Assembly: GCA_964421635.1 (NCBI GenBank)
Contig: CAYQWZ010000003.1
Location: 65,712-129,711, forward strand
Reading direction: 5' to 3'
DNA: 64,000 nucleotides
Source of the DNA: an uncultured Candidatus Saccharibacteria bacterium
Lineage (GTDB): Bacteria; Patescibacteriota; UBA1384; CAILIB01; JAUSJZ01
In this document: positions 6,406 through 54,708 of the stretch, in pieces
Layout of the letters: each line of letters starts with the position of its first letter
Numbering within the stretch: the stretch's first letter is position 1
Translations under genes and position numbers: made by a program
The notes under the pieces: generated by a model
The model's input: only the letters and a program-made list of their open reading frames with translations
What the model was told of the DNA's origin: nothing
Database searches by the model: none

Positions 6406-7185
6406 ATGAACACGCGAAATCTCATCTCAACTCTGCTTGCTGTCTTCATCGTTCTGTCGGCTTTGATGCCGGCACTGGCCGATGATGAGGGCGCGCAGGC
6501 CTACGCTCCCACCACCCTCAGTGCCTACGCCGGTTACAACAGCGACTACATCTGGTCGTTGGGAGGTCACTCGTCTGAGGGTTCCTCGCGTGCTGGCGCT
6601 GCTATTACCGCGCCGCTCAACCGGCAGGGCAGTGTCTGGCTTCAAGCTCGCTTCGACGCCATGTATGGCGATGGGCCGTTCGGCAAGGAGAACGATGTTA
6701 CCTTGGCTTTTTGGGGTAATCTGCCCAAGGGTCAGGTCGTCGGTGGCGCTGTACTGTGGTACGATCTGGCGCCGACAGGCAGCAGCCGTGTCGGCGACAT
6801 GGTCGAGGTGGCACTTTTCTACAAGTGCCCATTCGAAAGCTCTGTTGGCACGCTGGTGGCTGAAGTGGGCACCCGCGTCTTCTATGTAGTCGATTTCCCG
6901 GTGTCAGGCACTGATGGAGTCGTCCCTTACGTGGGCGTTTCCGGTGCTTGGCCCGTCTCGAGCCGACTGACGGGTAGCTGGAATCAGCTTGTCGGCTACG
7001 ACTCGGGCGTCTATCTGGCTGACCGCGGCCTGATGGCGCTGGGCGACGGCAAGATGACCTATCAGCTGAGCGACAGCGACCAACTGTATCTCAACTGTCG
7101 GTTCTGGGCTCCGCTCTCGGGCATCGACGACCGGGTCAGCAAGGCTGAGATCGGAATAGGCTACGAGCATGCCTTCACCTTCTGA
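6406..7185 (+). CDS. Secreted beta-barrel outer-membrane-protein-like protein in a GC-rich island (about 60% GC). The ORF opens at a TTG at 6400; ATG 6406 is likely.
   Basis: Signal peptide (LISTLLAVFIVLSALMPALA), alternating hydrophobic beta-strand pattern, and the C-terminal OMP signature ...GIGYEHAFTF ending in Phe. Composition departs sharply from the flanks. Confidence 0.5.
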   Translation: MNTRNLISTLLAVFIVLSALMPALADDEGAQAYAPTTLSAYAGYNSDYIWSLGGHSSEGSSRAGAAITAPLNRQGSVWLQARFDAMYGDGPFGKENDVTLAFWGNLPKGQVVGGAVLWYDLAPTGSSRVGDMVEVALFYKCPFESSVGTLVAEVGTRVFYVVDFPVSGTDGVVPYVGVSGAWPVSSRLTGSWNQLVGYDSGVYLADRGLMALGDGKMTYQLSDSDQLYLNCRFWAPLSGIDDRVSKAEIGIGYEHAFTF

Positions 7186-12157: not shown

Positions 12158-12472
12158 ATGGCTCATAAAAAAGCGGGTGGTTCAACTACCTTAGGAAGAG
12201 ACTCACAATCAAAACGCTTAGGCGTTAAAATTTTTGGTGGAGCCAAAGCCAGAGCCGGGTCAATTTTGGTTCGTCAAAGAGGAACAAAGTGGCACGCTGG
12301 TAAGAATGTGCAGAAAGGCTCAGACGACACTTTATTCTCTACAATTGCTGGCATGGTTCGTTTTCAGAAGAAAGCGGTTAATCATTTCACAGGCAAGAAG
12401 AAGTTAGTAACAATTGTGCATGTAGAAAATCTTGTTGCTAAACCAAAAACAAAAGCAAAAGAAACAAAATAA
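12158..12472 (+). CDS. rpmA: 50S ribosomal protein L27 with a C-terminal extension.
   Basis: [28 protein letters not shown]...[11 protein letters not shown]. Confidence 0.9.
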
Positions 12473-13017
12473 TGTCTTTACCAACCCATATTTATCAAGA
12501 GATAACAGCCAAGTTTGGTCGCCAGAAGGTGGCCGATTTGAAAGTGGGCAACACAATTCGAATTCACCAAAGAGTTAAAGAGGGTGAAAAAACTAGAGTT
12601 CAGGTTTTTGAAGGCATCGTTATTGCCATTAAACACGGACACGGTTTAGACGGTACTTTTAAGGTTCGACGCATCGCCGCCGGTGGAGTGGGAGTAGAGA
12701 AGACCTTTCCTTTTCACTTGCCATCTATTGAAAAAATTCAGGTTATTAAGCAAGCAAAAGTTCGTAGTTCAAAGTTATATTATTTACGAGAAAGATTTGG
12801 TAAAAGTGCCCGATTCAGTAATGAAAAAATTACCAATACTACTTGGGAAGAAGAGCTAGATGAAGAGGTCGGAGAAGCCTCTGACGAAAATACAGAGAAA
12901 GAAGAGAAAGCCGAAGAGAAGGAAGAGAAGCCAGCTGATGAAAAGAAGGATCAAGATAAAAAAGAAGCAAAGAAGGATGCTGATGACAAACCAAAAAAAG
13001 AAGAAAAATCTAAATAG
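12472..13017 (+). CDS. rplS: 50S ribosomal protein L19 with a long acidic/lysine-rich C-terminal tail.
   Basis: IRIHQRVKEGEKTRVQVFEGIVIAIKHGHG...FKVRRIAAGGVGVEKTFPFH, followed by an EEK/KKD low-complexity tail. Confidence 0.9.
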   Translation: MSLPTHIYQEITAKFGRQKVADLKVGNTIRIHQRVKEGEKTRVQVFEGIVIAIKHGHGLDGTFKVRRIAAGGVGVEKTFPFHLPSIEKIQVIKQAKVRSSKLYYLRERFGKSARFSNEKITNTTWEEELDEEVGEASDENTEKEEKAEEKEEKPADEKKDQDKKEAKKDADDKPKKEEKSK

Positions 13018-19442: not shown

Positions 19443-19604
19443 ATTACAAAATTATTACGCAGAATTATTAGGTAGGTAGGATTGTAAATTGAAGTAGTTT
19501 ACGCTAAGCTAGCGGGTGAGATATTAATGCCCGGTGGCCAAATTGGTAAGGCAGCTGATTCTGGATCAGAAGATTGTAGGTTCAACCCCTACCCGGGCAA
19601 CCAA
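19443..19604 (+). repeat. Direct repeat copy 1 (about 162 bp): the tRNA-Gln upstream region plus the tRNA. Near-identical to 20497..20662.
   Basis: Only about 3 differences across the pair: a TAGG unit copy-number change, T/C at one upstream site, and C/T at tRNA position 3. Confidence 0.85.
19528..19603 (+). tRNA. tRNA-Gln (anticodon CUG) with encoded CCA.
   Basis: Manual fold gives a 7 bp acceptor stem with U1-A72, D-loop with GG, anticodon loop UUCUGGA, 5 nt variable loop and T-arm GTAGG-TTCAACC-CCTAC. It closely resembles E. coli tRNA-Gln. Confidence 0.8.
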
Positions 19605-20496: not shown

Positions 20497-20662
20497 ATTA
20501 CAAAATTATTACGCAGAATTATTAGGTAGGTAGGTAGGATTGTAAATTGAAGTAGTCTACGCTAAGCTAGCGGGTGAGATATTAATGTCCGGTGGCCAAA
20601 TTGGTAAGGCAGCTGATTCTGGATCAGAAGATTGTAGGTTCAACCCCTACCCGGGCAACCAA
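20497..20662 (+). repeat. Direct repeat copy 2 (tRNA-Gln upstream region plus tRNA).
   Basis: See copy 1. Confidence 0.85.
20586..20661 (+). tRNA. tRNA-Gln (anticodon CUG), second copy (G2-C71, U3-G70 variant).
   Basis: Identical to copy 1 except one C-to-T change in the acceptor stem. Confidence 0.8.
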
Positions 20663-31712: not shown

Positions 31713-33284
31713 TCAAGATGAGGTGGCTTTGGTAATTTTTCTTTTCAATTTTGGGGGTTGGGCGGCGGCGGGCAGAGTTATAACGAAAGATGTTCCAATA
31801 GAATTGTTTTTAGCTTCTATACCGCCGCCGTGCTGTTCAATAATCCATTTTACTAGGGGGAGTCCTAGTCCAGCGCTACCGGCAATGTTTTTAGTTTTTT
31901 TGTCCTGAAAATAAGTGTCGAAGATTTTTTTGTTTGCCGATTTGCTGATTCCGCATCCTTCATCAGCAATAGTGATTTTTACTTGATTCTCAATTTTTTT
32001 AGCCTCAATCGATATTTTAGAATTTTCAGGTGAAAATTTTTGAGCGTTGTCCACCAAATTAATCAAAGCCTCAAAAAAATAGTTGGTATCAATCTCGGTA
32101 TAACAGTTATCTTCTAGTGAAAAAACAATTTTGTGTGATGGAGCAAGAGATTTAATTTCGCCTGACCATGAACGAATCAGTTTTTTAATATTGGTATTTC
32201 GAGGCTGAATTTTAGCTAATTTTGAGTCAATTTTAGTATTTTGCACAATATTATGTACGGTTCTATAGGTAGCGTTGATTATGTTTTCAATATCCTGAAT
32301 ATCCTTTTTTATTAACTTGTTTTTATTTTTTGCAGTTCTGATTTTTGTTTGGGCAATTATTAGAGGGCCTTTAAGACGGTGCGCGACGTCGGATATGAAA
32401 TTCATGTTAGCTTTATGAACTTTTTCTAATTCTAGGTGCTCGAGCTCTTTTCTATTGATCTTGTTGACAATGTCCCAGCTGGCGAAAACAACTAATAGAA
32501 AAAGAAGGATTTTATATGTCAGAAGATTGCTTGGGGCGGCAATAGCAGCTGCTGTAGTAATCGTTAGCAGGGTTGTATAGAAGACAATTTCTTTCGCTAC
32601 AATACGGATGTCGAAGAGTTGGTGTTTATATATTGCAAAAGACAGAACAAGTACAAAAAAGAAGCCTGAGAGAAAAGGAAATGGATAAATACTAATATTA
32701 TATGCAGGCAGAAAAGCTAATGGGCCAATAGTGAATAATATAATAAAAGCTAGATATACAAGTTTGGTTTGGTTGGCAATATTTTTGTTTTTTTGTTTAC
32801 TTTTTTTATAGTGCAAATGTAAATTTCTAAGCATTCCAAGTGTATGAATAGTGAACCATAATAAGAAAATATGATGCCATATTTGAGCTTGTGTATGAAC
32901 ACCCCAAGGATAATAGAATAAGTCTTTTACAAAGTAGTCTGTTCGACTCATTATTAGGAATGTGAATGCTCCAAAATATGAGAAAGGAAGTAATTTACTT
33001 TGATTGTTGAGCTTTGTATAGGCAATACTGAAATGATAAACAAGTGTTGGTATGAAGACGACTCCGAGGTAAATAAATCTATCCCAAAAAATTTGTTGCG
33101 TAGAGAATTCAGATATAAACAACATAAAAGTGCCAAACAGCCATATAACAATTGAGATACTAAAAAAGATAAATATAGAATTTAAATCGTTCTTTCTATT
33201 CTTTTTATAAACAGCTAAAGAGAAAAGCAAAACAAGAATTGCGCTAATTAGTGGAAAGAAATCAGAGGTGTTAAATATTGGCAT
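31713..33284 (-). CDS. Membrane sensor histidine kinase (multi-TM N-terminal sensor).
   Basis: H-box FISDVAHRLKGPL and HATPase_c motifs (LVDNAQKFS...DEGCGI...GSAGLGLPLVK). Confidence 0.8.
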   Translation of the reverse strand: MPIFNTSDFFPLISAILVLLFSLAVYKKNRKNDLNSIFIFFSISIVIWLFGTFMLFISEFSTQQIFWDRFIYLGVVFIPTLVYHFSIAYTKLNNQSKLLPFSYFGAFTFLIMSRTDYFVKDLFYYPWGVHTQAQIWHHIFLLWFTIHTLGMLRNLHLHYKKSKQKNKNIANQTKLVYLAFIILFTIGPLAFLPAYNISIYPFPFLSGFFFVLVLSFAIYKHQLFDIRIVAKEIVFYTTLLTITTAAAIAAPSNLLTYKILLFLLVVFASWDIVNKINRKELEHLELEKVHKANMNFISDVAHRLKGPLIIAQTKIRTAKNKNKLIKKDIQDIENIINATYRTVHNIVQNTKIDSKLAKIQPRNTNIKKLIRSWSGEIKSLAPSHKIVFSLEDNCYTEIDTNYFFEALINLVDNAQKFSPENSKISIEAKKIENQVKITIADEGCGISKSANKKIFDTYFQDKKTKNIAGSAGLGLPLVKWIIEQHGGGIEAKNNSIGTSFVITLPAAAQPPKLKRKITKATSS

Positions 33285-33285
33285 T

Positions 33286-34839
33286 CTAATTATCTGCTAC
33301 TTGTTTGTTAATTAACCTGTTTTTTTTGTGGAGTGGTTTTTCTAAACATGGAAGGACAAGAGAGAAGGTTGTTCCACAATTTTTATTATTGTGTTTAATA
33401 GTACTTTCTACCAATATTTTACCGCCGTGCTGCTCGACGACCCATTTGACAAGGGGTAATCCTAATCCGGCGCTACCAGCAACTGTGGTTTTGTTTTTTC
33501 CTTGATAATGTCGTCGGAAAACTTTTTTCAATTCAGATTTATCTATTCCTGATCCTTCATCGGCAATTGATAGGTAAAGAAGATTAGAATCCTTTTTTAA
33601 TTGAATGGTGATTTTGCTTTTTGGTGGTGAGAATTTTCGAGCGTTATCTATAATGTTGGTTAATGCTTCCAATAGGTAGCCGCGATCTATTGAAGCATGA
33701 CAATTTGGTTCGGTTTGGAAAATTATTTTGTGATCTGGAGCCAAGGATTCTAAGTAAGTGAGTTGATGTTTTAGAAAGTCTGACAAATTGGTTGGCTGTT
33801 TGCGGATTGTTGCCATACCAAAATCAATTTTGCTGTTTTGGACAATGTTCTTTACGGTGTTGGTGGTCGCTAGTGATATTTCAGCGATTCCTTTTAATTC
33901 AGGTTGATAATTCTTTTTATTTTTTATTGCTTTGTTTGCTTTAGTGTTGATAATTACCAAAGGGCCTTTTAAGCGATGAGCGACATCTGAAATAAATTCC
34001 ATGTTAGCCTTGTATTCTCGTTGGAGATTTTTATACTGTGAGATATCTTTTCGGTTTTGTTTAGTTATATCTGTGAGGGCGACAATTGCAATAAAGGTTA
34101 CGAAAAGTTTTGTAAACATGGGAGTTGTGTTAGATAGAATAGTGAATGAAAATAAATGAAAAAAGAGCAATAGGGCAAAAAACTTGATAAGGGAATGATT
34201 GAGCTTGCTATCCTTTGTTTTAAAGGAACTAAAATAAATGAAAATGCTGAATATTAATGATGAGATTGGGCCAATGAAGACTAAATTTTCTTGGCCGACC
34301 AGAGGTAGGTAAAGGTCAGTTGTGCTGGCAATTAATGCAAAAGTGATAAAACCGATAAAAATAAATCGGTTACTAATTTTATTTTTACTATTATCTTTTA
34401 TAACAAATATTATTTGGGCGAGAATAGATACTGCGATGAAGACTGCGTATATATAGGTGAAATTATTAGTATCTGAAATTATTATTCCATTGATAATCTC
34501 TGAGTTAGGGAATATTCCAGGATTAACAGTTACGACAGCTAACAAAAGAGCAATAATACCAATAAGTATTAATATTTTATGATTAATTTTTGCTTTGGTT
34601 GATTGATAAAAAAATAAGAAAGAGGTTAGAGCAATAAATAATCCTGCAGTACCAATTAGTTTTTGGAAAACGTCAATTTCTGTTAAGTAGTACAAGAAAT
34701 ATGTGAAGTTGTACAAGCATAATGATAGCAGTATATATAAATAGTAAAGACGGATTTTATCTTTAATAGAAATTGAGAACGCAAAAGATAAGTGAATTAT
34801 AGCTGTAGAAAGAAGTATTAATTGAACATCACTCATCAA
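33286..34839 (-). CDS. Membrane sensor histidine kinase, tandem paralog of 31713..33284.
   Basis: H-box FISDVAHRLKGPLVI and N/G boxes (IIDNARKFS...DEGSGI...GSAGLGLPLVK). Confidence 0.8.
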   Translation of the reverse strand: MMSDVQLILLSTAIIHLSFAFSISIKDKIRLYYLYILLSLCLYNFTYFLYYLTEIDVFQKLIGTAGLFIALTSFLFFYQSTKAKINHKILILIGIIALLLAVVTVNPGIFPNSEIINGIIISDTNNFTYIYAVFIAVSILAQIIFVIKDNSKNKISNRFIFIGFITFALIASTTDLYLPLVGQENLVFIGPISSLIFSIFIYFSSFKTKDSKLNHSLIKFFALLLFFHLFSFTILSNTTPMFTKLFVTFIAIVALTDITKQNRKDISQYKNLQREYKANMEFISDVAHRLKGPLVIINTKANKAIKNKKNYQPELKGIAEISLATTNTVKNIVQNSKIDFGMATIRKQPTNLSDFLKHQLTYLESLAPDHKIIFQTEPNCHASIDRGYLLEALTNIIDNARKFSPPKSKITIQLKKDSNLLYLSIADEGSGIDKSELKKVFRRHYQGKNKTTVAGSAGLGLPLVKWVVEQHGGKILVESTIKHNNKNCGTTFSLVLPCLEKPLHKKNRLINKQVADN

Positions 34840-34873
34840 TATGAGTGTTAGCAGAAAGTAGATGAAGAATCAA

Positions 34874-35977
34874 TTAACTTTTAGATTTTTTTAGTTGGTT
34901 TGCAACAACCTTGAAGGGTTCGTCGAAAGACTTAATATTGGCGGTATCATCTTGCTTATCAATTTTTGGTTTGATATACGCATACAACTGTGGTTTTTCT
35001 GATTTAAAATATGCTAAATTTTTCTTAATTAATGGCAAATTTGAAGGTGGTAGGCTATTGTTTATTAGTTGCGCCTTAGCTTTTATTAGTTGGAGAGTTA
35101 TATCTGGTGGACCAAGGTTTCCTGTTGCGATAAGAAAATTATTGGTTTGTAGTCTCCTCATCTTTTTTAAAATTGTATTCTTGAGGTGTTTATCAAGATT
35201 TGTTTCAGAAATTATAGCTTGATCAATTAGCTTTGTAATATTATTAGGTTCGGTCAAATGATTAATTTTGCCTTTCTTGTGTATACACCTGATAATTTTA
35301 TTACATAGACGATCTACAGATGTAAAACCCATAAAGCTTGTGAGAAGAGCCACTTCATTATAAGTGTAATTACCACTTTCTCCACCATCAAGAGTAATTA
35401 TTTGTATATCAGAGGATCGTTTTTGTATTATTACAGGTGAAAATATACATAATCCTGGTTTGATTTCAATTACTTTCAACTTGTCACGCAAACCCCTTTG
35501 GAGTAGTAAATTCATTGAAGTAATAATGCCAGCTATGGCAGCTTTATTGATAATTGGTAAATTAGCTTGTTTTTCACCATGTGTAAATGGAATATTAAAC
35601 CCCAAACCACCTGAGCCCGTTGTTCCAATTTGAACATAAGTACATTTTTTCTCTAAAGATGTGAATATTTCAAAAAGATTAGCAAAAAAAGTTATAATTT
35701 TATTTACATCTGCTATTCCATTTTTTGAGCAGATAGTGGCCATGTTAACAGAATTAATTATCAGATCTGGTTTGGTTGATTGAATAATGAATGTTAATTT
35801 TTTATTATCAAAAATGTCATAAAACAAATATTTAACATTGTGCAATTTTCTTTTTACTGAAATGTCTATTACAATAAGGTCGTAGTTATCGACTAGTTTG
35901 GCTGTAAGATTCCTTCCGACAAGGCCATTACCTCCAAACACAAGAGCGGTTTTTTTATGGGTTATATTTTTCAACAT
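34874..35977 (-). CDS. NAD(P)-binding Rossmann-fold protein, function unknown (saccharopine-dehydrogenase/epimerase-like).
   Basis: N-terminal TALVFGGNGLVGRNL (GxxGxxG). The remainder has no clear motif. Confidence 0.4.
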   Translation of the reverse strand: MLKNITHKKTALVFGGNGLVGRNLTAKLVDNYDLIVIDISVKRKLHNVKYLFYDIFDNKKLTFIIQSTKPDLIINSVNMATICSKNGIADVNKIITFFANLFEIFTSLEKKCTYVQIGTTGSGGLGFNIPFTHGEKQANLPIINKAAIAGIITSMNLLLQRGLRDKLKVIEIKPGLCIFSPVIIQKRSSDIQIITLDGGESGNYTYNEVALLTSFMGFTSVDRLCNKIIRCIHKKGKINHLTEPNNITKLIDQAIISETNLDKHLKNTILKKMRRLQTNNFLIATGNLGPPDITLQLIKAKAQLINNSLPPSNLPLIKKNLAYFKSEKPQLYAYIKPKIDKQDDTANIKSFDEPFKVVANQLKKSKS

Positions 35978-35978
35978 T

Positions 35979-37511
35979 ATGTCAACCTACTTTCCATTAA
36001 TACCATATTATTCAAGGAGAGCATATCAAATATTAAAGCAGTCAAAGAATTCTTTTTTTTCCGCGTTAACATATTTTAATGTTGATTTTGCATATAATTA
36101 CATAACAAAATCAACACCAAATGTCATTATTAGAGATGGTGTAATTTCAGAAAGAAAGCTTGGCGAATATATTTGTTTAAAAGTGCCTGCATATAAACGT
36201 TTGTTAAAAGAAAATAGGGTAGATAAACCTGTGATTGATAAAGAAAATTATCTATTAGAAAATGATTTTACTGATATGTTACCAAATGGTGATATTGGTT
36301 ATGCTGATGTGATATCGGTTAGTTCTGGCTCTAGTGGTAAACCATTTTTTTGGCCACGTGGCAAATATCTTGAATTAGAAACGACTATTATCCATGAAAT
36401 ATTATTGAAATATGTGTTTGATATTGATAAAAAACACACATTATTTATTAACGCATATTCTATGGGAATGTATGTTGCTGGTGTTTTTACCAACAATGCA
36501 GTAACAAGAATTGCTGAAAGAGGCTACAATATCAGCATTATTAATCCGGGAATTTCTGAAAAAGATATTATCAGAATAATAAAGGAAATAGGAAGAGCAT
36601 ATGACCAAATTATTATTAGTGGTTACCCGCCTTTTATTTTAGATGTTATAGAAGCTGGTAGAAATGAAGGAATCAAGTGGAAGGAAAAAGATTTGAAATT
36701 TATATTTGGTGCTGAAGCTATTAGTGAAGAATGGAGGAATAATTTATTAAAATTAATCGGAGACACAAATAAATATTTTTCTAGCTTTAATACATATGGT
36801 TCAGCTGATCTTGCTATGCTTGGTCACGAAACACCTTTTAGTATTTTCATTAAAGATCAACTAGTTAAAAACAAACATTTGTATAAAACAATACTAAATT
36901 CCCGTTCAATATCTACATTGGTACAATATCATCCATCATTAAAACACTTTAATGAAAAAAATGGTGAGTTATTTTGCTCAGGGCTCGGTGGAATACCACT
37001 ATATAATTACAATTTACATGATCATGGCTCAGTTTATACCATTGAAGATATGATTGGTCTTTTTGAATCTGTAGGTGTTAATATAATTAAATTAGCAGAA
37101 AAAGAAAATATACCAATTTGGAATCTTCCTTTCGTTGTTCTTTTTGGTAAGAGTGATCAGACAGTTACATTGTATGGTTTAAATGTTTATCCTCAAACAA
37201 TAAGGAAAGCACTTGAATCAAAAGAATTAATTGATTTTGTGACAGCAAGATCTACTATATCAACAGAATATAAGAAAAGAGGGACACAATATTTGAAAGT
37301 AATTGTTGAGTTGAAAAAAGGGGAAAGGGTATCAAATAGTAAAAGGAATAAAATATCTGAAAAAGTATTCCAAATATTATTTGAAGATAATTATGAATAT
37401 AGAACGCTTTATCAAAAAATAGGTGATAAGGCTAAACCAGTTATTAAGCTAGTGATGTATGGTAGGATTGCTGAAAATAGGGGAATAAAACAACAATGGA
37501 TAAAGAGATAA
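35979..37511 (+). CDS. Adenylate-forming enzyme of the ANL superfamily (PaaK/F390-synthetase/CapK-like acyl-CoA ligase). The ORF opens at 35898 but the first ATG is at 35979.
   Basis: Phosphate-binding loop VSSGSSGKPFFWPRG (the SSGTTGKP equivalent) and a YGSAD (YGxTE-like) motif. Confidence 0.55.
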   Translation: MSTYFPLIPYYSRRAYQILKQSKNSFFSALTYFNVDFAYNYITKSTPNVIIRDGVISERKLGEYICLKVPAYKRLLKENRVDKPVIDKENYLLENDFTDMLPNGDIGYADVISVSSGSSGKPFFWPRGKYLELETTIIHEILLKYVFDIDKKHTLFINAYSMGMYVAGVFTNNAVTRIAERGYNISIINPGISEKDIIRIIKEIGRAYDQIIISGYPPFILDVIEAGRNEGIKWKEKDLKFIFGAEAISEEWRNNLLKLIGDTNKYFSSFNTYGSADLAMLGHETPFSIFIKDQLVKNKHLYKTILNSRSISTLVQYHPSLKHFNEKNGELFCSGLGGIPLYNYNLHDHGSVYTIEDMIGLFESVGVNIIKLAEKENIPIWNLPFVVLFGKSDQTVTLYGLNVYPQTIRKALESKELIDFVTARSTISTEYKKRGTQYLKVIVELKKGERVSNSKRNKISEKVFQILFEDNYEYRTLYQKIGDKAKPVIKLVMYGRIAENRGIKQQWIKR

Positions 37512-38599
37512 AAATTTTTGATTGTACAGAAAAAGAGATTCAAAAATATAGTATAAAATATAAGGCACTTGGTTATGAATGGATTGATATAGTTGATGAG
37601 AATATTAGAGAGCTTGAAGAGATATATAAATATCAAGATGAAGCAATTATATTTAATCTGATAAAGAATAAAACCGTATTAGTCGATTATCCATGGTTGA
37701 GGAGTATAGTGAGGATTTGTCCAGAAGGGTATTTCCTCGAGTTACTTTCTTCAAGAAATAGGAATTTAATTAGCTCTAAAGAACAAAAGACACTTAGGAA
37801 GGCAAAGATCTCTGTTGCTGGTTTGAGTGTTGGAAGCAACATCTGTAAAATTATGGCAATGCAAGGTGTGGGAAGAGATTTTAATATTGCTGATTCAGAC
37901 ATCCTATCCTCAACTAATCTAAATAGAGTGAGCGAGAGTATTTTGAATGTTGGAAAGCCAAAGACACTATTAACCAAAAGAAGACTTTTAGAGATCAACC
38001 CTTTTTTAAATATAAATTTATTCAATAGAGGATTGACAATAAAGAATATCACGACATTCATCAGAGGAGCATCTGTTGTTTTTGATGAAATAGATAATTT
38101 AAATTTAAAACTTAAGTTAAGAGAGGCGGCAAAAAATGAGAGAAAACCACTTGTGATGATTACAGATAATGGTGATAACGTTATGGTGGATATTGAAAGG
38201 TATGATACAGACCCAAAACTGATACCTTTTCACGGCTTATTAAATAAGTTTGATCTTGATTTAATAAAAAAAGCAAAAAAGGGACTTAAACCAAGTGAAA
38301 GAGTTAAACTATCGTTGAAAATTGTGCAACCACAAAATGCAGTACCTAAAATGCAAAAATCACTTGTCGATGTTGGAAAAACATTAAACACATGGCCTCA
38401 ATTAGGGACTGCAGCGACACTTGCGGGTGCTGTTGGTTGTATGATTGCTAGAAAAATAATATTAAAAGAAGCACTTGTTTCTGGTAGGCGACACATCTCC
38501 TTAGACGCCGAACTTGAGCCAGGTCATAGAAAAGTAAGGTCAGTTCTGCGTAGACATATTCATACTATGAATTTCAAAAAGAGTTTAGGAAGAAAATGA
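37496..38599 (+). CDS. ThiF/MoeB/E1-like adenylyltransferase family protein with an N-terminal extension of about 100 aa.
   Basis: Rossmann motif ISVAGLSVGSNICKIMAMQGVGRDFNIADSDILSSTNLNRV (GxGxxG...D.D.V..SNLNRQ pattern). Confidence 0.6.
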   Translation: MDKEIKIFDCTEKEIQKYSIKYKALGYEWIDIVDENIRELEEIYKYQDEAIIFNLIKNKTVLVDYPWLRSIVRICPEGYFLELLSSRNRNLISSKEQKTLRKAKISVAGLSVGSNICKIMAMQGVGRDFNIADSDILSSTNLNRVSESILNVGKPKTLLTKRRLLEINPFLNINLFNRGLTIKNITTFIRGASVVFDEIDNLNLKLKLREAAKNERKPLVMITDNGDNVMVDIERYDTDPKLIPFHGLLNKFDLDLIKKAKKGLKPSERVKLSLKIVQPQNAVPKMQKSLVDVGKTLNTWPQLGTAATLAGAVGCMIARKIILKEALVSGRRHISLDAELEPGHRKVRSVLRRHIHTMNFKKSLGRK

Positions 38600-44547: not shown

Positions 44548-45755
44548 TAAAAAGCGTCAACTAAACCATACATTGGCTGTAATACGGAGACTAATAATAA
44601 GGCGATAGCGATACCCAACACAACCATTATTATAGGTTCTAGAGCGGCTGATAAATTACGGGTGGTGTTGTCAACTTCCTGTTCGTAGAAATTGGCAATC
44701 ACTTTGAAGGATTGATCAAGCGTGCCAGATTTTTCACCAACCTGAGTCAGCTGGGCTACCATATTGGGGAAATACTTACTTTCGCGCAACGCTGAGGCTA
44801 TAGGCATGCCATTTTCTACTTTCTTTTCAATATGTCCTAGCTCTTCCTCTATGGCGTCGTTACCGACTAGCTTTTTAGTAGTGGAGAAGATCTCCAAAAT
44901 TGGTAAGCCAGAAGATAACAACGAAGAAAAGCCGAGACTAAAACGGGCTAGATAGACATGCTTTAAAAGAGTGCCAAAAACTGGAACCCTCATCTTTATC
45001 TTATCCCAAAGTAGCTTGATTTTTTTGACTTTTAAGCCGAAGTGAAAAGCAATAAAACCAAAAATAATAAATAATATTAACCAGAGCCAATATTTAACAG
45101 TGAAGTCTGAAAGTTTAATTAACATTCTAGTGGACATCGGTAAATCTATACCGGCGTCATCGAAAACAGTTTTCAGTCTAGGAATTACAACAATCACAAT
45201 GACAGCAATAACTAACACCATTAAAATAGAGATTATCGCTGGATACATTAAGGCGGAGCGAACCTTGCCTTTAATTTCCGCATCCTTCTGCAGCTGTTTA
45301 GTTATGCGAGCTAAAATTTTATCTAAATTACCCGATTTTTCACCAGCTCGCACCATCTGTATATATACGGAGTCAAATGCTTTAGGATATTTAGATAGCG
45401 CCTCAGAAAGGGGAGCTCCTCCTTCAACCTCAGAAGCAAGGTCGTTAAGCATTTTAGAGATTGGCTTTTTGGTTGACTCAGAATTGATAGATTTTATTGC
45501 ATCTGACACAGACAAACCCGACTTGACCATGACGGCTAGCTGTTCAGTAAGAATTATCTTCTCTCTTAATTTGAGTTTAGTGCTTCCCTCGCCAAATAAG
45601 TCAGAATTAAAAAGTTTGCTGCCTTCTTCAACCGAAAAGATAATTAATTTTCTAGATCTTAATATTTTTCTGGCTTGACCAATTGATTTAGCGTCAATCT
45701 TACCTTTGATTGTCTGCCCATTATTGTCGCGTGCCCGATATTTATAAGTTGGCAT
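44547..45755 (-). CDS. pilC: Type IV pilus platform protein PilC (GspF family).
   Basis: Two T2SS-F domains and three TM helices. About 400 aa. Confidence 0.85.
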   Translation of the reverse strand: MPTYKYRARDNNGQTIKGKIDAKSIGQARKILRSRKLIIFSVEEGSKLFNSDLFGEGSTKLKLREKIILTEQLAVMVKSGLSVSDAIKSINSESTKKPISKMLNDLASEVEGGAPLSEALSKYPKAFDSVYIQMVRAGEKSGNLDKILARITKQLQKDAEIKGKVRSALMYPAIISILMVLVIAVIVIVVIPRLKTVFDDAGIDLPMSTRMLIKLSDFTVKYWLWLILFIIFGFIAFHFGLKVKKIKLLWDKIKMRVPVFGTLLKHVYLARFSLGFSSLLSSGLPILEIFSTTKKLVGNDAIEEELGHIEKKVENGMPIASALRESKYFPNMVAQLTQVGEKSGTLDQSFKVIANFYEQEVDNTTRNLSAALEPIIMVVLGIAIALLLVSVLQPMYGLVDAF

Positions 45756-47911
45756 TAATCTTTAGTTACTCTCCATACTTCTTCTAGTGAGGTAATACCG
45801 TCAATCGCTTTCATTAATCCATCTTGCATCATAGTTGTCATGCCGTCGGCAATGGCTTGAGCAGAAATTTTTGAGTCGTCTGAACTTTGATTAGCAAGTT
45901 CTTTTATAGCGGTGTTGACATCTAAAATTTCAAATAATCCTACTCGGCCTTGGTAGCCAGTGTCGTTACAGACTTCGCAGCCTTTGCCCTTAAAGAAATT
46001 CATTTTGGCGGGCATTTTGTAATCCTTAATTTTGGCTAGCTCTTCTTTAATAGTCTGTAGTTCTTGGGCCGAAGGATTATAACTTTCCTTGCAGTGCTCG
46101 CAAATTTTTCGCGCTAGTCTTTGAGCGATAACTGTATTAACAGATGAAGAAATTAAGAATGGTTCTACACCCATATCTATTAGGCGAGGGAAGGCGCCAG
46201 CGGCGTTGTTGGTGTGTAAAGTAGAGAGCACAATGTGGCCTGTGAGGGCGGATTGAATAGCAATTTCGGCTGTTGGTTTATCACGAATTTCACCAACCAT
46301 AATAATGTCTGGGTCTTGACGCACAATGGCTCGCAATCCATCGGCGAAGTTGTATTTAATGTCGGGGTTGACCTGACTCTGGTTAATTCCCTCAATTCTA
46401 TATTCAATCGGATTTTCTAGAGTCACAATATTTACTCCGACATCCATTAGTTGACCTAAAAGTGCGTACAGGGTGGTAGTTTTGCCAGAACCGGTTGGTC
46501 CGCAAACCAAAGTCATGCCGAAGCTTTTTTTGACATTGTTTTTTACAATATCGTAAGAACGGCCACGCACACCAATTTCTTCCAAAGATAATATTCCTTG
46601 CGATTTGTCGAGTACGCGCATAACTGCTTTTTCGCCGTCTGCTACAGGTAAAATTGAGAGACGAAAGTCAACTCGGTTTTTATCTATCTCTATCATAAAT
46701 CGTCCGTCCTGAGGTAGGCGGTGCTCATCAATTTTTAGGTTGGCAATAATTTTGAGCCTAGCAATTATAGCTGCTTGAATAGTCTTTGGCAGCCTTATTC
46801 GTTCGCGCAGTACACCATCAATCCTAAATCTTATTACCACAGCGTTTTCGTAAGGCTCAACATGAATATCTGATGCCTTCTCCCGCACCGCCCGTCGCAT
46901 TAGTGACAGTACAATTTTGGAGGTAGGAGAATCTTCACCTGAAGTTTCCACATTTTCGTTCTGGGCTTGGGCAATCTCTTTTTTAGAAATTTCTAAGTCA
47001 GTATCTTTAATGACCGTTTCAACTTCTTTCTCCAAGCCTGAATATTGGTTTAAAATTCGATTGATATCTTCGGTGGTGGCCAAAACAGGCACTACATCGC
47101 GGCCAGTGCTTTTTTTAATCAGCTGAACTATCTCTAAGTTTTCAGGATCAACCATAGCCACTGTAATGGTGTTTTTGTCGGCTTCTATGGGGGCGGCTTT
47201 GTGACGGCGAGCGAAAAGTTCAGGCAAAATATTTAAGATTTTTTTGTCAACCTTAATATTAGATAAATCTTTGTAGCTAATAGTTTTTGGCTTGATAGCT
47301 TGCCTAAATTGGCTAGTTTGGGTTTTGGCGTCTACGGTTATAGGATCGCGTTTCTTAAATTTATCAAACAGAATCAATAGATTCGGCGATTTTTTATTTT
47401 GTTCCGTCTTCACTGTTTCTGCTGTTGCTGGTTCTGTCGCTGTCTCAGCAGGCGCTGCTGCTTCAATGATATCTTCTTTCAGCTCAGTGTCAGCTTCAAA
47501 CTCAGCCACATTAACACCATCGCCAGCTTGATTTTCGCCTGCCTGAATTTGATCAACTTCATCTGGCGGAGCACTCATCACTTGGCCATCTTTGTCGTAA
47601 CGAGTAGCGACTTTATGCAAAGTGCCACGACGGATTTCCACCGCATTTCTAAATTTGTCGGCCGGTTTAAACTTAACAACTTTTGTTGGAAGGATTAATA
47701 TCTGATGACCGCGACCCTGCGGGTCAGGCACCGATTTAGAAGGATAGTGGTGAATCTTGAAACGACCAAAATTGGTAATATTAACAACCTCACCTTTATT
47801 AAGGCTGCCGGCAATAACATTTGAGATCTCGTTTATTATTTTCCTAGAACGAGCTAAAGATAGCCCTGACCGCTGGGCTACTAAATTATAAACATCGGAT
47901 GTTTTTAGCAT
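45755..47911 (-). CDS. pilB: Type IV pilus assembly ATPase PilB (GspE family) with an N-terminal HU/IHF-fold domain fusion.
   Basis: Walker A GPTGSGKTT, a T2SSE_N domain, and a C-terminal CxxC zinc motif. N-terminal residues 1-95 align to HU (VNITNFGRFKIHHYPSKSVPDPQGRGHQILILPTKVVKFKPADKFRNAV versus the HU consensus GFGTFEVRxRAARTGRNPQTGEEIKIPAxKVPxFKAGKALKDAV). Confidence 0.85.
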   Translation of the reverse strand: MLKTSDVYNLVAQRSGLSLARSRKIINEISNVIAGSLNKGEVVNITNFGRFKIHHYPSKSVPDPQGRGHQILILPTKVVKFKPADKFRNAVEIRRGTLHKVATRYDKDGQVMSAPPDEVDQIQAGENQAGDGVNVAEFEADTELKEDIIEAAAPAETATEPATAETVKTEQNKKSPNLLILFDKFKKRDPITVDAKTQTSQFRQAIKPKTISYKDLSNIKVDKKILNILPELFARRHKAAPIEADKNTITVAMVDPENLEIVQLIKKSTGRDVVPVLATTEDINRILNQYSGLEKEVETVIKDTDLEISKKEIAQAQNENVETSGEDSPTSKIVLSLMRRAVREKASDIHVEPYENAVVIRFRIDGVLRERIRLPKTIQAAIIARLKIIANLKIDEHRLPQDGRFMIEIDKNRVDFRLSILPVADGEKAVMRVLDKSQGILSLEEIGVRGRSYDIVKNNVKKSFGMTLVCGPTGSGKTTTLYALLGQLMDVGVNIVTLENPIEYRIEGINQSQVNPDIKYNFADGLRAIVRQDPDIIMVGEIRDKPTAEIAIQSALTGHIVLSTLHTNNAAGAFPRLIDMGVEPFLISSSVNTVIAQRLARKICEHCKESYNPSAQELQTIKEELAKIKDYKMPAKMNFFKGKGCEVCNDTGYQGRVGLFEILDVNTAIKELANQSSDDSKISAQAIADGMTTMMQDGLMKAIDGITSLEEVWRVTKD

Positions 47912-50762: not shown

Positions 50763-50807
50763 AAAAAGGAGCAAAAAACAGGCAACAAAAACAGGCAATA
50801 AAAAGAA

Positions 50808-50831
50808 GGGGCGGCGGAGCCGCCCCTTTTT
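50808..50831. terminator. Bidirectional intrinsic terminator (GGGGCGGC-gga-GCCGCCCC flanked by A/T runs) between the convergent nfo and lipoprotein genes.
   Basis: An 8 bp GC stem with a T-run on the plus strand and a U-rich tract on the minus strand. Confidence 0.75.
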
Positions 50832-50886: not shown

Positions 50887-53013
50887 TTACCAGTTGATGG
50901 TGTACTCTTCGAACCGTTGGGAGTGGTTGTTGTTGGTGCTAGGCCCGCGAGGGAAGCCGTGGTGGTAAAGGGGGCCGCTGTAACGAGACAGCATGCCACC
51001 GTAAACCGCCCAAGCGTTGTTGACGCCGAGTTCACAGATTCGACCATGTTGGAAGATCTGTTCCTCGCCGTAACGAGCGCTACAGCCCGACCTCACCCTT
51101 GTGACCTTGGCAGTCAGCGGATAGCCCATGGGTCCAGAGGGGCCACCAGTGCGTTCGTATTCACGGAAGAATCCTCCTGTGATTACATGCTCCGTTTGAC
51201 TCCACTCCGCGATGCAACCACCTTGGAAGGGCTGGTACATGCCATACCCACCATTGGTGTTTACATACTGCGGAGCGCCAGATTTGGGCGATCGGCGATG
51301 GTCGGCGGGAAAGCTGAGTTCGCCAGACCATTTGCCCTTGTGTTCCCAGACGCGGGCGAAATCGCCAATCACATGGGTAACGAGACCCTTGCATTTGACG
51401 ATGTAGCCACTTTCGAATTGCTGTGCCTCGCCGATTTCACCATCGACGCCGGATCGCAATCCTCGCATCTGGTCGCCAATGGGACAGCCTAGTTCGCCGT
51501 TGCCGCCACCTTTTGTCTCATGGTATCTGGAGAACTCTCCCTCGACCGGGTAGACATTCGTGCCGAGGTTGTACAGTACTCCATTCTCACCTCGTTGTCT
51601 GGTGTAGCCACGGTTAGATACGCCGGAGACATACCGACCGTCTCTTCCATCCATCTGGGAAGGTTCAACTGATCGTCCCACATTACTGCGAGCGGCTGCC
51701 GCCTCCCACTTTTCACGGAAGAAGGCGTTATGTCCCCAGACGATGCCGACTACTTGCTGTGCTACCTGTTGCGGCGCCGACGCTGTGGAAGAAGAAGTAG
51801 CGCCGTTACTGCTAGTTTGGCTTGCCGGTATGGAGGCGTAGGTAGTTACGGATGAGCTACCAGACTCGCTGCCGGTGTCGATTACTTCTGCCAACTCGTT
51901 ATAGACACGCTCCATGGCTGAAGGGTGACTATGCAAAGCAGAATGTCCGAGTGGCAGAACAGCCGATTCCCAGCGAGCTTCATTGGCCAGACCCGACCAG
52001 TTGCAGCTGTTAACACTAACAACCCAGTCTTTGCTTCCTGCCAGAGTGAAGTAATCTGTATCAGCGTGGGTCGGCTGATTCAGATCGTTGAGAAATATAC
52101 TATTGTGCATCATATTACCGATGGATGGAATAGTATAATTGGCAATAAAATACGCTATTAATGATGTTTCGATTAATGCTGGATTCAGTGTAACTCCAGC
52201 AGCAAAGATAAGGTTATCCGTTGTTAATCCAGCGAAAGAAACACCATCATTAGGTGTACCAAGCATTACTAATTTCTTAACGTCATGATCCATCCCTCTT
52301 TTCTCAATAAGATGTCGAGCGACAAGACCACCTTGGCTGTGGCCGACTACAACCAACTTCTTGTAACCGCAGGTATTATGTAATTCATGTAATGCATCGT
52401 ATATTTGTTGGGAGCTTGTAGTGATTGATTGAAGATCATAATAATCGATATAAAGAAGATTTGAAACCAATCTTGTTTTTGATTCTTGACCAGGAATGAA
52501 TCCATTAATAGAATTTGCAACATCCTTCATGGAGGTATGATTGGTGAAAGTACCATGAAGAACTATTCCTATGGGTAATTCAGATGTCGCACGACCCGAA
52601 GTGTTTGTACCCATATAATTGATTTGTGGAGGAGTTGCTTGTGGCAAAGTGATTTTGAACAAACTGATGCTTTTTGGAGCAACATCCTCTTGAAGCGGGG
52701 TACTAGAAAATTTTGTAACAACAGTGTTCCCGTCAAGTTCACCAACAACTGGTTGCCAAGAGCCATTCTCGTATGTCAATGTCAGCAAGAAAGCCTCATT
52801 GTCTCTCAGAGAATCATTGTAGTTGAGGGTCACATCTTTGTTTAGGCTTCTTTTCGCTTCGATTTGTTGCTCATGAACTTTCACCGATGTGAAATCAGTA
52901 CTTTCCGAAGTGAACGAAGGCTCATCTAGTTGATTAAGTGATGGGCTGGAATCATTGTTTGAACCGCAACCGTATAGAAGCGCCAACGCAATTGACAGCA
53001 GCAGCCTCTTCAT
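50887..53013 (-). CDS. Lipoprotein with an N-terminal alpha/beta-hydrolase (lipase/esterase) domain, a Ser/Thr-rich linker, and C-terminal tandem LGFP repeats. The two halves differ sharply in GC.
   Basis: Lipobox LLYGCGS, nucleophile elbow VVVGHSQGGLVA, and C-terminal repeats containing LGCP/LSFP/MGYP/HGFP with the W..GG..G.LG.P spacing typical of LGFP repeats. GC is about 38% at 52000-53000 and about 58% at 50887-51800. Confidence 0.65.
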   Translation of the reverse strand: MKRLLLSIALALLYGCGSNNDSSPSLNQLDEPSFTSESTDFTSVKVHEQQIEAKRSLNKDVTLNYNDSLRDNEAFLLTLTYENGSWQPVVGELDGNTVVTKFSSTPLQEDVAPKSISLFKITLPQATPPQINYMGTNTSGRATSELPIGIVLHGTFTNHTSMKDVANSINGFIPGQESKTRLVSNLLYIDYYDLQSITTSSQQIYDALHELHNTCGYKKLVVVGHSQGGLVARHLIEKRGMDHDVKKLVMLGTPNDGVSFAGLTTDNLIFAAGVTLNPALIETSLIAYFIANYTIPSIGNMMHNSIFLNDLNQPTHADTDYFTLAGSKDWVVSVNSCNWSGLANEARWESAVLPLGHSALHSHPSAMERVYNELAEVIDTGSESGSSSVTTYASIPASQTSSNGATSSSTASAPQQVAQQVVGIVWGHNAFFREKWEAAAARSNVGRSVEPSQMDGRDGRYVSGVSNRGYTRQRGENGVLYNLGTNVYPVEGEFSRYHETKGGGNGELGCPIGDQMRGLRSGVDGEIGEAQQFESGYIVKCKGLVTHVIGDFARVWEHKGKWSGELSFPADHRRSPKSGAPQYVNTNGGYGMYQPFQGGCIAEWSQTEHVITGGFFREYERTGGPSGPMGYPLTAKVTRVRSGCSARYGEEQIFQHGRICELGVNNAWAVYGGMLSRYSGPLYHHGFPRGPSTNNNHSQRFEEYTINW

Positions 53014-53154: not shown

Positions 53155-53454
53155 ATGCATGATCTCTACTTATTGTTTGTAGCAGTAATATCTATGATTC
53201 TTTCCTGGTTTTTTGTAAGGACATTAGTTTTTGTTGGTTTAGAGAGGAAAAAAATTAGTAATGAACAAAAAACATTATTACAAGAAGAAATTAAAAGAGT
53301 AGCTTTTGGGCCGCTTATATATTATGGAATTAGTAAGAAATATGATATTGTTTGTAATATTGTTCCAAGATACTGGATAGATTTTTCTGTAATTATTGGC
53401 TATTTCTTTCTTTTTATATGTTTTAGATTATTATCATTAGTAATTTATTTATGA
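53155..53454 (+). CDS. Small membrane protein (2-3 TM), hypothetical, in a very AT-rich island.
   Basis: ORF with predicted TM helices. GC is about 28-30%. Confidence 0.35.
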   Translation: MHDLYLLFVAVISMILSWFFVRTLVFVGLERKKISNEQKTLLQEEIKRVAFGPLIYYGISKKYDIVCNIVPRYWIDFSVIIGYFFLFICFRLLSLVIYL

Positions 53455-53858
53455 ATACAAAAAACACAAATAGAAATCAATTAATAACTGGCTTATTCTA
53501 TATTTTGTCAGCAATCATTTTTGTGTGGTTGCCTTTGCCATTTCTTTATCCTGCAATGAATGATTTGAGTCTTATCATTCTCTTAATGTATCCAATATTC
53601 ATTACTCCATTATTTGCTATTTTTCTAGTGTTATTAAAAGTAATAGGAAAAAAAATCCCGCTAAATATAATAGTATTATCTACAGTGTTTGCATTAATAT
53701 TTAGTGTGGTGGCATTAAGATTGGAATCACAATACAGTATCCTTTCTAATCTTATGGAGGGGAATATACATTTCGAAAAAAAATCAACTGAATTGATAAT
53801 AATAGATCAAAATGACGATTCTAATACTATTGGAGAAGAAACAATAACCTCAGATTAG
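53451..53858 (+). CDS. Small membrane protein (3 TM), hypothetical.
   Basis: Overlapping start with the upstream ORF. Predicted TM helices. Confidence 0.35.
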   Translation: MNTKNTNRNQLITGLFYILSAIIFVWLPLPFLYPAMNDLSLIILLMYPIFITPLFAIFLVLLKVIGKKIPLNIIVLSTVFALIFSVVALRLESQYSILSNLMEGNIHFEKKSTELIIIDQNDDSNTIGEETITSD

Positions 53859-53877
53859 TTACTTGATGTAAAATTTA

Positions 53878-53920
53878 TCACGAATGAAGATGAGATAATT
53901 AAAATGTAATGTAATTTAGA
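53878..53920 (+). promoter_or_regulatory. Conserved promoter-like element (copy 2), 13 nt upstream of ATG 53934.
   Basis: See copy 1. Confidence 0.45.
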
Positions 53921-53933
53921 ATAGGATTAATGC

Positions 53934-54386
53934 ATGCAAATAAATTTCTTGAAACACGGTCAGTCGTCGAAGCTGATGACTTTTTCTTCCTCTTTGTTTT
54001 CTCTGATAATTATTTTTTTTCTTACTTCCAAAAATGTTTTAGCATTTCTGCCATATTTAATTTTTGTGCCGTTAGCTTTAACATTTATTGCCTATATTAT
54101 TTCCAATTCTCTATATAAAAAGAAAAAAATAGATCAAAAAGAATACTCCTTTATACCAAAGTATGTGTTTATATTGAATTTGTTTCTATACTCGCTTGAG
54201 TTAGGATTTCATATTTTTTACAATGCCAGATCTCAAATAAATTTTTTCACATCTGGAATGTTAGGGGCAAAGATCGTATATATAATCAGCACTTATTCTT
54301 TGCAAATATTCATAATATTGTTTTTGGCTGCAATTATATTATGGTTTTATCAAATATTACAAGGTGTGCCTAAAAGTGAGAAATAG
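53934..54386 (+). CDS. Small membrane protein (4 TM), hypothetical.
   Basis: ORF with predicted TM helices. AT-rich. Confidence 0.35.
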   Translation: MQINFLKHGQSSKLMTFSSSLFSLIIIFFLTSKNVLAFLPYLIFVPLALTFIAYIISNSLYKKKKIDQKEYSFIPKYVFILNLFLYSLELGFHIFYNARSQINFFTSGMLGAKIVYIISTYSLQIFIILFLAAIILWFYQILQGVPKSEK

Positions 54387-54429
54387 TATTTAATCTATCA
54401 ATGAAAAATATTACACAATTACTATATCT

Positions 54430-54708
54430 ATGATGAGCAAGAGCTTTATCATTTCATCTTTGAGTATTACTATAGTTGGAATATTTATTTTAATGAATGC
54501 TTCTGCCCTTGGAATGGAAGGATTAGCAATTGCAATGTATTACATACCCATGTCGCTACTGATTGCTTTCTTTATAGTTGTACCAATAGCAAATAAATTA
54601 AGGGATAAGAAAATCTTAGATCATAATCAGTACATATTTTTTACCATTTTATTGTTATTTACCAACATATTGTTTCTACTGATTAAACTTAATCACGGCT
54701 TTTCGTAG
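54430..54708 (+). CDS. Small membrane protein (2-3 TM), hypothetical.
   Basis: ORF with predicted TM helices. Confidence 0.3.
   Translation: MMSKSFIISSLSITIVGIFILMNASALGMEGLAIAMYYIPMSLLIAFFIVVPIANKLRDKKILDHNQYIFFTILLLFTNILFLLIKLNHGFS

Follow-up and report, generated by a model that had tools for sequence, protein, structure and literature searches.

Domain organization of the lipoprotein

The window analysed here is a stretch of 64,000 nucleotides of contig CAYQWZ010000003.1, and the gene of interest lies on its minus strand at 50887–53013, where an intact reading frame (stop codon 50887–50889) encodes a complete lipoprotein of 708 amino acids. Its 5′ part specifies an α/β-hydrolase and its 3′ part a domain of tandem LGFP-type repeats, with GC contents of 40% and 56.5%, respectively. 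Comparison with orthologues at the same locus indicates that the fusion is probably old and was inherited vertically, and that the step in composition is not the mark of a recent donor.

The protein begins with MKRLLLSIALALLYGC, in which an n-region, an h-region and a lipobox with Cys16 can be recognized. The signal peptide, MKRLLLSIALALLYG-C16 (residues 1–16, 52966–53013, minus strand as for all segments of the gene), is made up of the n-region MKR, the h-region LLLSIALALL and the lipobox L-Y-G-C16, as is typical of bacterial lipoproteins. Tyrosine at lipobox position −2 is atypical. The lipoboxes of the orthologues described below read VVGC, CVGC, LYGC, LIGC, LTGC, LSAC and LTAC, and the Cys16–Gly17 pair is invariant in all eight. 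Genes for Lgt and LspA did not come to light in the 64 kb at hand, but no search aimed at them was made. Residues 17–145 (52579–52965) form a variable region with 15–27% identity among orthologues that is missing in the shortest forms (L009 and L013); a low-confidence, two-sequence model of the full-length protein (predicted local distance difference test, pLDDT, 30) suggests that it is rich in β-strands. The hydrolase domain follows at residues 146–378 (51880–52578) and is connected by a Ser/Thr/Pro-rich linker (residues 379–419, 51757–51879) to the C-terminal LGFP-type domain (residues 420–708, 50890–51756), which has a GC content of 0.56 and a third-codon-position GC content (GC3) of ∼0.60. 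No paralogue of either half was found within the window. An open reading frame (ORF) antisense to the GC-rich 3′ half (50917–51492, plus strand, 191 amino acids) has a 40%-identical counterpart in the relative L002, but is most simply explained as a by-product of high GC content and conservation of the sense strand.

The C-terminal half is a divergent LGFP domain

The C-terminal half contains four LG[FYC]P-type motifs spaced 56–63 residues apart (LGCP 508–511, LSFP 566–569, MGYP 629–632 and HGFP 685–688), preceded by a degenerate fifth (VGRS, 445–448); the orthologous motifs read LGCL, LGYP, LGYP and HGFP. The Pfam profile PF08310 (LGFP), with a gathering cut-off of 22 bits, scored 27.7 bits on the whole protein and 28.7 bits, in three stretches, on residues 416–708. 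One orthologue (P0002) scored 25.6 bits. When residues 416–708 were compared exhaustively with 1.84 billion representatives using phmmer, 238 proteins were found at E ≤ 1e-3 (best E 1e-26), and these, other than one orthologue, were multi-repeat proteins of 30–38% identity. Ten matches were checked against Pfam, and the nine from outside the clade scored 170–700 bits on PF08310. Those with annotation include an ‘LGFP repeat protein’ of Aquisphaera (Planctomycetota) and of Blastococcus (Actinomycetota), as well as JGI proteins in which LGFP repeats are paired with a GDSL esterase or a YkuD transpeptidase. No homologue emerged from word-indexed searches in which the two halves served as separate queries. 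Three repetitive translations (P0004, P0005 and P0012, one of them annotated as Punica granatum, pomegranate) matched the C-terminal query at E 1e-25 to 1e-17; they look like translated repeat DNA and were excluded as spurious. Such matches could mislead automated annotation.

A single-sequence phmmer search of the PDB with the C-terminal half yielded nothing meaningful, and the best match to a profile of the orthologues was PS1 of Corynebacterium glutamicum (6SWZ, 6SX4; E 0.006). An AlphaFold2 model of residues 416–708 built from a 15-sequence alignment (pLDDT 83, predicted template-modelling score 0.81) consists of a leading helix and 4.5–5 units of three to four strands and a helix. Foldseek comparison of this model with the PDB returned significant matches to 6SX4 (E 2e-12) and 6SWZ (E 7e-12; template-modelling score 0.72 on the target) only, with a probability of 1.0; the next entry was at E 1e-2. 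Judged by profile score, by a modelled stalk of helix and three- to four-stranded sheet and by tandem units with motifs of the L-G-[FYW]-P type, which in this family measure ∼54 residues, the C-terminal domain is an LGFP domain, an assignment that we consider solid.

The two PDB entries are mycoloyltransferase A (MytA, also PS1; 6SX4) and its C-terminal domain (6SWZ). PMC11299179 describes MytA as the only solved LGFP structure, with a unit of one helix and a 3–4-stranded sheet, and, citing the MytA structure paper, states that its LGFP domain binds peptidoglycan–arabinogalactan in pull-downs. MytA likewise joins an α/β-hydrolase fold to five LGFP units that make up a C-terminal stalk, and by analogy the window protein may share its role of an envelope enzyme tethered to the cell wall, as outlined in PMC11299179. 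In contrast to MytA, the window protein carries a lipobox and a Ser/Thr linker, and its LGFP units are ∼20% identical to those of MytA and have conserved cysteines. Its host lineage is no mycolate producer, which makes arabinogalactan an unlikely ligand.

Members of PF08310 from Actinomycetota and other phyla (for example Blastococcus mobilis WP_176445544.1, Aquisphaera giovannonii WP_148594851.1 and the JGI proteins P0015 and P0017) share tandem LGxP units of ∼55–60 residues and similarly pair the array with an envelope-acting enzyme, as in P0015 (‘LGFP repeats/lysophospholipase L1-like esterase’, GDSL) and P0017 (‘LGFP repeats/L,D-transpeptidase YkuD’). They differ in having 4–16 clear repeats that score 170–700 bits, compared with 28 bits and at most 38% identity for the window protein, and in both their partner domains and the order of the domains. 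None of those checked is a lipoprotein with a PGAP1/Palm_thioest-like hydrolase.

The hydrolase domain

The nucleophile elbow GHSQGG occupies residues 224–229, with Ser226 encoded at 52336–52338; Asp329 (52027–52029) and His357 (51943–51945) complete the putative triad, and H153-G154 forms the HG oxyanion motif. Ten residues (C16, G17, H153, G154, H225, S226, G228, G229, D329 and H357) are invariant in 8/8 orthologues despite an overall identity of ∼30%. The GxSxG elbow, the Ser-Asp-His order and the oxyanion HG, all kept among homologues, are those of a serine α/β-hydrolase. Pfam places residues ∼150–340 closest to Palm_thioest (4e-13, 50 bits), followed by DUF7379, Abhydrolase_1, PGAP1, DUF915 and weaker lipase and cutinase families; NCBIfam gave no usable match for the lipoprotein. 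A search of the PDB with the hydrolase detected weak similarity (E 7e-4 to 1e-2) to BlEst2 (6WPX), a Streptomyces secreted lipase (5H6B) and family I lipases (1TAH, 1CVL, 1YS1). With these secreted enzymes, and with the Pfam families Lipase_2, PGAP1, Palm_thioest and DUF7379, the domain shares the GxSxG motif, the HG oxyanion motif, the order of catalytic residues and a compact size of ∼230 residues, but the similarity is too weak for a substrate to be assigned. In contrast, MytA has a catalytic domain of the esterase-D/antigen-85 type, to which the window protein gave no Pfam match down to E = 1.

These results agree with much of the original prediction, which had been made from the nucleotide sequence and described a lipoprotein with a lipobox, an α/β-hydrolase with a GHSQGG elbow, a Ser/Thr-rich linker and C-terminal LGFP repeats. 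The lipobox with Cys16, the elbow with Ser226 and the linker at about residues 379–419 were all recovered. The repeats, for which it had suggested a profile search and structure prediction, were confirmed by the PF08310 score of the C-terminal half, by LGFP homologues at 1e-26 and by a confident model whose only significant matches are the two MytA entries. Its comparison with the hydrolase-plus-LGFP architecture of PS1 and other mycoloyltransferases holds for the fold of the LGFP half and fails for the hydrolase, which is of a different type.

Orthologues occupy a conserved but variable slot

A scan of genome collections found one relative, L002 (‘MAG: bacterium isolate E14_metabat.bin.335’), with a 733-residue protein of the same architecture. 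Its contig is syntenic with the window over >20 kb, including GroEL, GroES, DnaB, the lipoprotein, AP endonuclease, DnaX, PilB/C/M and others. Scanning metagenomes with the resulting two-sequence alignment added one weak, hydrolase-only fragment (L003). The GroEL of the window led to further relatives, with unlabelled GroEL sequences of 72–84% identity; the nearest named sequences were from Berkelbacteria, a lineage of the Candidate Phyla Radiation (CPR), at 68%, and then from Patescibacteria and Clostridia at 63–66%. GroEL thus hints at a CPR-like placement of the clade. The original prediction had envisaged a Saccharibacteria-like parasite of actinomycetes; the GroEL matches point to neither Saccharibacteria nor an actinomycete host.

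Wherever the contig of a relative extends to the slot flanked by AP endonuclease and DnaB, a lipoprotein hydrolase is found there; with the window this makes eight lineages of a small, uncultured clade. The long form, composed of hydrolase and LGFP domain, is found in the window lineage (W, 708 residues), L004/L005 (716), L002 (733) and L014 (732), and a short form with the hydrolase only in L007 (363), L012 (369), L009 (259) and L013 (258). A bootstrapped neighbour-joining tree of 1338 aligned GroEL, DnaB, AP-endonuclease and GroES positions grouped W with L004 (100%), L002 with L014 (100%) and the outgroup lineages L012, L009 and L013 with each other (100%), and placed the short-form L007 with W and L004 (98%).

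Long-form loci differ from short-form loci in the interval between the lipoprotein gene and DnaB, which measures 3.5–4.4 kb in the former and 0.9–1.4 kb in the latter. Only the long-form loci have additional small, low-GC genes here, each with two to three transmembrane (TM) segments. In the window these are four ORFs of 99, 135, 150 and 92 amino acids (53155–54708, plus strand, 25–30% GC), each with 2–3 predicted TM segments and divergent from the lipoprotein gene; the counterparts lie at 4913–5932 in L004, 8788–9855 in L002 and 3383–4069 in L014. The small proteins of L002, L014 and L004 show weak similarity to one another (E 9e-7 to 9e-3), and none of the small proteins matched a Pfam family significantly. 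Their restriction to long-form loci suggests a functional link to the lipoprotein: they may act as its partners, or may have come in along with the LGFP module.

On the opposite side of the lipoprotein gene an intrinsic terminator (50806–50828, minus strand; 10-bp stem with eight G-C pairs and a T-run on both strands) serves the convergent lipoprotein and AP-endonuclease genes. This side of the slot is also variable. L004 and L005 have a GC-rich ORF of 266–320 amino acids without a family (L004 1662–2462, minus strand), and L002 encodes a low-GC, 184-residue secreted protein resembling PsbP_2 (12405–12959, plus strand; 1.6e-8), where the window has the terminator only.

High GC3 is a property of the gene family

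A two-change-point maximum-likelihood fit delimited a GC-rich block from 50805 to ∼52010–52085, with a GC content of 0.565 inside and 0.40–0.42 on either side (window overall 0.40). The terminator hairpin forms its lower edge. GC3 climbs from ∼0.35 in the 5′ part of the gene to ∼0.60 in the 3′ part, and the C-terminal half has a GC3 of 0.585 where 0.377 would be expected from background codon preferences (z = 7.7); the highest value among 80 background windows of 300 codons was 0.487. Because GC3 rises too, the step is more than a matter of amino-acid composition. The change point for C at third codon positions (C3) falls at codon 377 (two-unit support 290–461), at the hydrolase/linker junction. 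The sister L004 has its change point at codon 379, and L002 and L014 have none.

We then compared the GC3 of the gene with that of the housekeeping genes of each lineage. In W the background is 0.35–0.41 and the gene has 0.36 in its 5′ half and 0.61 in its 3′ half; L004 resembles it, with 0.41 and 0.61 on a background of 0.45–0.49. Both halves are elevated in L014 (0.66 and 0.74, background 0.38–0.46) and in L002 (0.76 and 0.80, background 0.62–0.65). The short genes are GC3-rich as well, with 0.67 in L007 (background 0.34–0.41), 0.72 in L012 (0.66–0.71), 0.79 in L009 (0.57–0.70) and 0.75 in L013 (0.58–0.68). High GC3 is therefore a trait of the gene family in 8/8 lineages, with or without the LGFP domain and at genome GC contents of 40–57%. 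The exceptions are the 5′ halves of W and L004, which are at genome background; these two lineages would have lost the family bias in the 5′ half only. As GC3 is high also in the orthologues without an LGFP domain, and in the hydrolase-coding parts of the L014 and L002 genes, the GC step is not a donor signature.

The excess consists mostly of C-ending codons. In the 3′ half of the W gene, C3 is 0.42 and G3 (the equivalent for G) 0.19, compared with 0.21 and 0.14 in genes on the same strand. Among the genes checked, C3 exceeded 0.26 in one other case, an ORF of 261 amino acids at 6400–7185 (plus strand). This ORF lies in a second GC-rich island (6001–7000, 52% GC) and has a GC3 of 0.71, a C3 of 0.42 and a codon bias like that of the lipoprotein 3′ half. 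Its N-terminus is signal-peptide-like, its end (...GIGYEHAFTF) resembles the terminus of an outer-membrane protein, and it has no Pfam match. It may belong with the lipoprotein to one class of compositionally odd surface-protein genes.

A conserved anchor and a variable enzyme

The two halves of the protein evolve very differently. Residues 571–708 are 79–93% identical among the long forms, comparable to GroEL and DnaB (78–88%), and within this segment sisters are 0.88–0.90 and cross pairs 0.79–0.85 identical. Hydrolase halves, on the other hand, are 0.25–0.38 identical in every ingroup pair, including the sisters L002 and L014 (housekeeping distance 0.16), whereas the hydrolases of L009 and L013, outgroup sisters that lie equally far apart in their housekeeping genes, are 0.69 identical. 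The enzyme head of the ingroup appears either to evolve very fast or to be swapped as a cassette, with the catalytic residues fixed. Conservation of the stalk implies an invariant ligand, and a head this variable suggests that it is exposed to selection, be it by phage, by a partner cell or by substrates that change. LGFP units 1–2 (residues 436–570; 51403–51705) have diverged faster in W alone (0.52–0.54 identity to the others, 0.79–0.82 among the others), while their GC3 stays high. This acceleration, and not recombination, explains the impression gained by eye that the L004 C-terminal half is a mosaic of L002 and W.

At four-fold degenerate sites, identity in the C-terminal half is 0.28–0.46 by pair, as compared with 0.24–0.46 in GroEL, DnaB, AP endonuclease and GroES and 0.23–0.33 by chance, and the tree of this half agrees with the species tree. 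Synonymous identity at the housekeeping level together with tree congruence argues for vertical descent since the ingroup ancestor, with no recent exchange among the sampled lineages. Since hydrolase-only orthologues occupy the same slot, the LGFP module was apparently added to a pre-existing hydrolase gene.

Origin of the fusion

The abrupt change of composition within one ORF could in principle stem from an assembly in which two organisms of different GC content were joined in frame at ∼51.8–52.0 kb. However, low-GC sequence syntenic with the relatives (terminator and AP endonuclease) resumes directly downstream, so that a chimera would call for two in-frame joins in a stretch of 1.2 kb. The identical protein is also encoded on L001 (ERZ27248922 k141_1086317, 49.4 kb), an independent ENA contig whose ends are not those of the window; over 20,319 bases the two differ by a single mismatch, which lies at 44349 and not within the gene. 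Architecture and GC step recur in the sister lineage, which comes from three separate samples and assemblers (L004, L005 and L006; one ENA and two JGI samples); its loci differ at 1–6 positions, none in the gene, which is covered in L004 and L005. Full-length orthologues moreover align colinearly over the junction. A chimera can be practically dismissed, in line with the original prediction, which had argued for a genuine domain acquisition. That prediction had also given GC contents (about 38% and 58%) near those measured and had noted that composition and domain boundaries coincide. It had further suggested that the module might be host-derived if the genome belonged to an epibiotic lineage. 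On the reading built on this suggestion, a native low-GC lipase took up its high-GC LGFP module in recent times from a host among the actinobacteria (mycolata), and the GC step records the composition of the donor. The step in GC and GC3 at the junction is indeed real, the fold matches corynebacterial MytA, the outgroup lineages are without the module, and most of the distant LGFP relatives have an amino-acid composition of the high-GC type (median GARP/FYMINK ratio 2.1) and include Blastococcus as one named match. Another named relative is a planctomycete, however, and the best protein from outside the clade is 35–38% identical among the 1.84 billion representatives, so no donor group with a close homologue emerged. 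Close relatives carry the module at the locus (L004/L005, L002 and L014; it is missing only in L007 and the outgroup), and the synonymous sites of the gene shared by these four lineages are saturated as in housekeeping genes. The compositional deviation is confined to the LGFP segment in W and L004 only, and extends over the whole gene in L014, L002 and the LGFP-less L007, L009, L012 and L013, contrary to the notion of a native low-GC lipase with a foreign high-GC partner. The hydrolase is of another family than that of MytA, and there is no evidence of an actinomycete host. Recent host-derived capture is thus largely refuted and, in our estimate, very improbable. What stands is the acquisition itself, which is neither recent nor specific to this genome; that the module arose long ago in some lineage of high GC content is plausible from the composition of most of its distant relatives.

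A more serious contender holds that the slot between AP endonuclease and DnaB is a recombination hotspot that has repeatedly been overwritten, in whole or in part, by relatives' alleles of other GC content. The window gene would then be a mosaic, with a 3′ half that came from a GC-richer relative before W and L004 split and is still ameliorating, and a 5′ half that is locally adapted or a replaced low-GC cassette. The short form of L007 fits such a scheme, as it is nested among long forms (98%), lacks both the 3′ module and the flanking TM genes on its 5′ side and has a GC3 of 0.67 in a genome of ∼0.37; so do the GC3-rich whole gene of L014 in a low-GC genome, the differing gene content of the slot between lineages and the equidistance of the hydrolase halves (∼0.25–0.38) even in sisters with 0.90-identical C-terminal halves. 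Four-fold identity between W and L004 in residues 571–708 is 0.46 where 0.26 is expected; by rough arithmetic about half of the sites would be retained in each lineage since the split, which could leave the observed GC3 excess and is compatible with an ancestral GC3 of ∼0.8 decaying to 0.61. Set against this are the agreement of the C-half phylogeny with the species tree, a synonymous identity of the C-half no higher than that of DnaB, the absence of variation in the gene among near-identical assemblies, and the GC3 excess in 8/8 lineages, for which alleles would have to have been imported many times over, on each occasion from a donor richer in GC. We regard a hotspot as possible, though on balance doubtful. 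It is rather unlikely that the slot as a whole is a surface-protein system in which an LGFP anchor as conserved as GroEL is combined with an enzyme head made hypervariable by diversifying selection or by the exchange of cassettes, with small membrane-protein genes that vary as well, and with a GC3-rich, C-ending codon usage of its own. Such a system would entail that synonymous sites are under selection or that alleles are repeatedly replaced between lineages, in either case specifically at a surface gene and possibly in connection with the contact of an episymbiont with the wall of its partner.

We favour the reading that the gene is intact, was inherited vertically and encodes a cell-surface lipoprotein composed of a hydrolase, a Ser/Thr linker and a stalk of ∼290 residues with five LGFP-type units, and put its probability at roughly 60%; judging from the orthologous sequences, we believe to the same degree that the module joined the resident hydrolase gene long ago, in the ingroup ancestor. 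Several observations weigh against this reading. The nested position of the short-form L007 means that a single gain must have been followed by loss or allele replacement, or that the module moved early between the two long-form pairs. Hydrolase halves are ∼30% identical even between close sisters, a level at which rapid divergence and cassette replacement are indistinguishable. Strict vertical descent with saturated synonymous sites needs a force that holds GC3 ∼0.1–0.25 above background, and ordinary translational selection is unlikely to be that force, as GroEL has no preference for C-ending codons. Candidates for the excess are selection or biased conversion at a recombining surface locus, or repeated replacement by alleles of GC-richer relatives, a process suggested by L007 and L014. 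The view that the bias is specific to C3, and hence not a GC effect, had to be softened, since the C-over-G asymmetry is in part a replication-strand effect (minus-strand genes have the C3 of 0.21 and G3 of 0.14 given above). Finally, the Pfam LGFP score is modestly above its threshold, the sequence-level match to the PDB is weak (E 0.006), and the mechanism proposed below is built on analogy with one characterized LGFP protein.

Proposed function and significance

In the favoured reading of an inherited hydrolase–LGFP lipoprotein, the lipid on Cys16 at the N-terminus would tether the protein to the outer face of the membrane. On its flexible Ser/Thr linker, the LGFP stalk would bind a conserved cell-wall glycopolymer, by analogy with the binding of peptidoglycan–arabinogalactan by MytA. 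The hydrolase with the triad Ser226-Asp329-His357 would thereby be placed to cleave an ester or lipid of the envelope, either that of the cell itself or that of an attached partner.

LGFP arrays are already known as wall anchors of envelope enzymes, mainly in Actinomycetota. New here is that a divergent LGFP stalk is carried by a lipoprotein whose hydrolase resembles PGAP1 and Palm_thioest, and that the lineage concerned is not actinobacterial and is probably related to the CPR. The comparison of loci captures the states before and after the gain of a domain, and, should the organism be an episymbiont, a lipase on a stalk that binds the wall is a plausible device for contact or foraging and offers a concrete object for tests. 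The case also holds a lesson for method: a sharp GC step at a domain boundary looked like a textbook recent transfer, and the comparison of orthologues showed otherwise. The persistent, gene-specific GC3 excess and a GroEL-like anchor beside an enzyme of ∼30% identity are residual puzzles for the evolution of genome composition and for CPR surface biology.

Other features of the window

The type IV pilus ATPase PilB (45755–47911, minus strand) has an N-terminal HU-like domain (Bac_DNA_binding, 53.9 bits, residues 4–91) ahead of its MshEN and T2SSE domains. This fusion is kept across the clade, being present also in L007, L009, L012, L013 and L001, and is an unusual architecture for a pilus motor. 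Two genes for tRNA-Gln(CTG) lie ∼1 kb apart on the plus strand, at 19528–19603 and 20586–20661. A block of 30% GC at 31713–38599, in a window of 40% GC, contains two tandem histidine kinases of the seven-TM type, an epimerase-like gene, an ORF of 537 amino acids without a family and a ThiF-like gene; the origin of this block may differ from that of its surroundings, or its low GC content may just reflect many membrane proteins.

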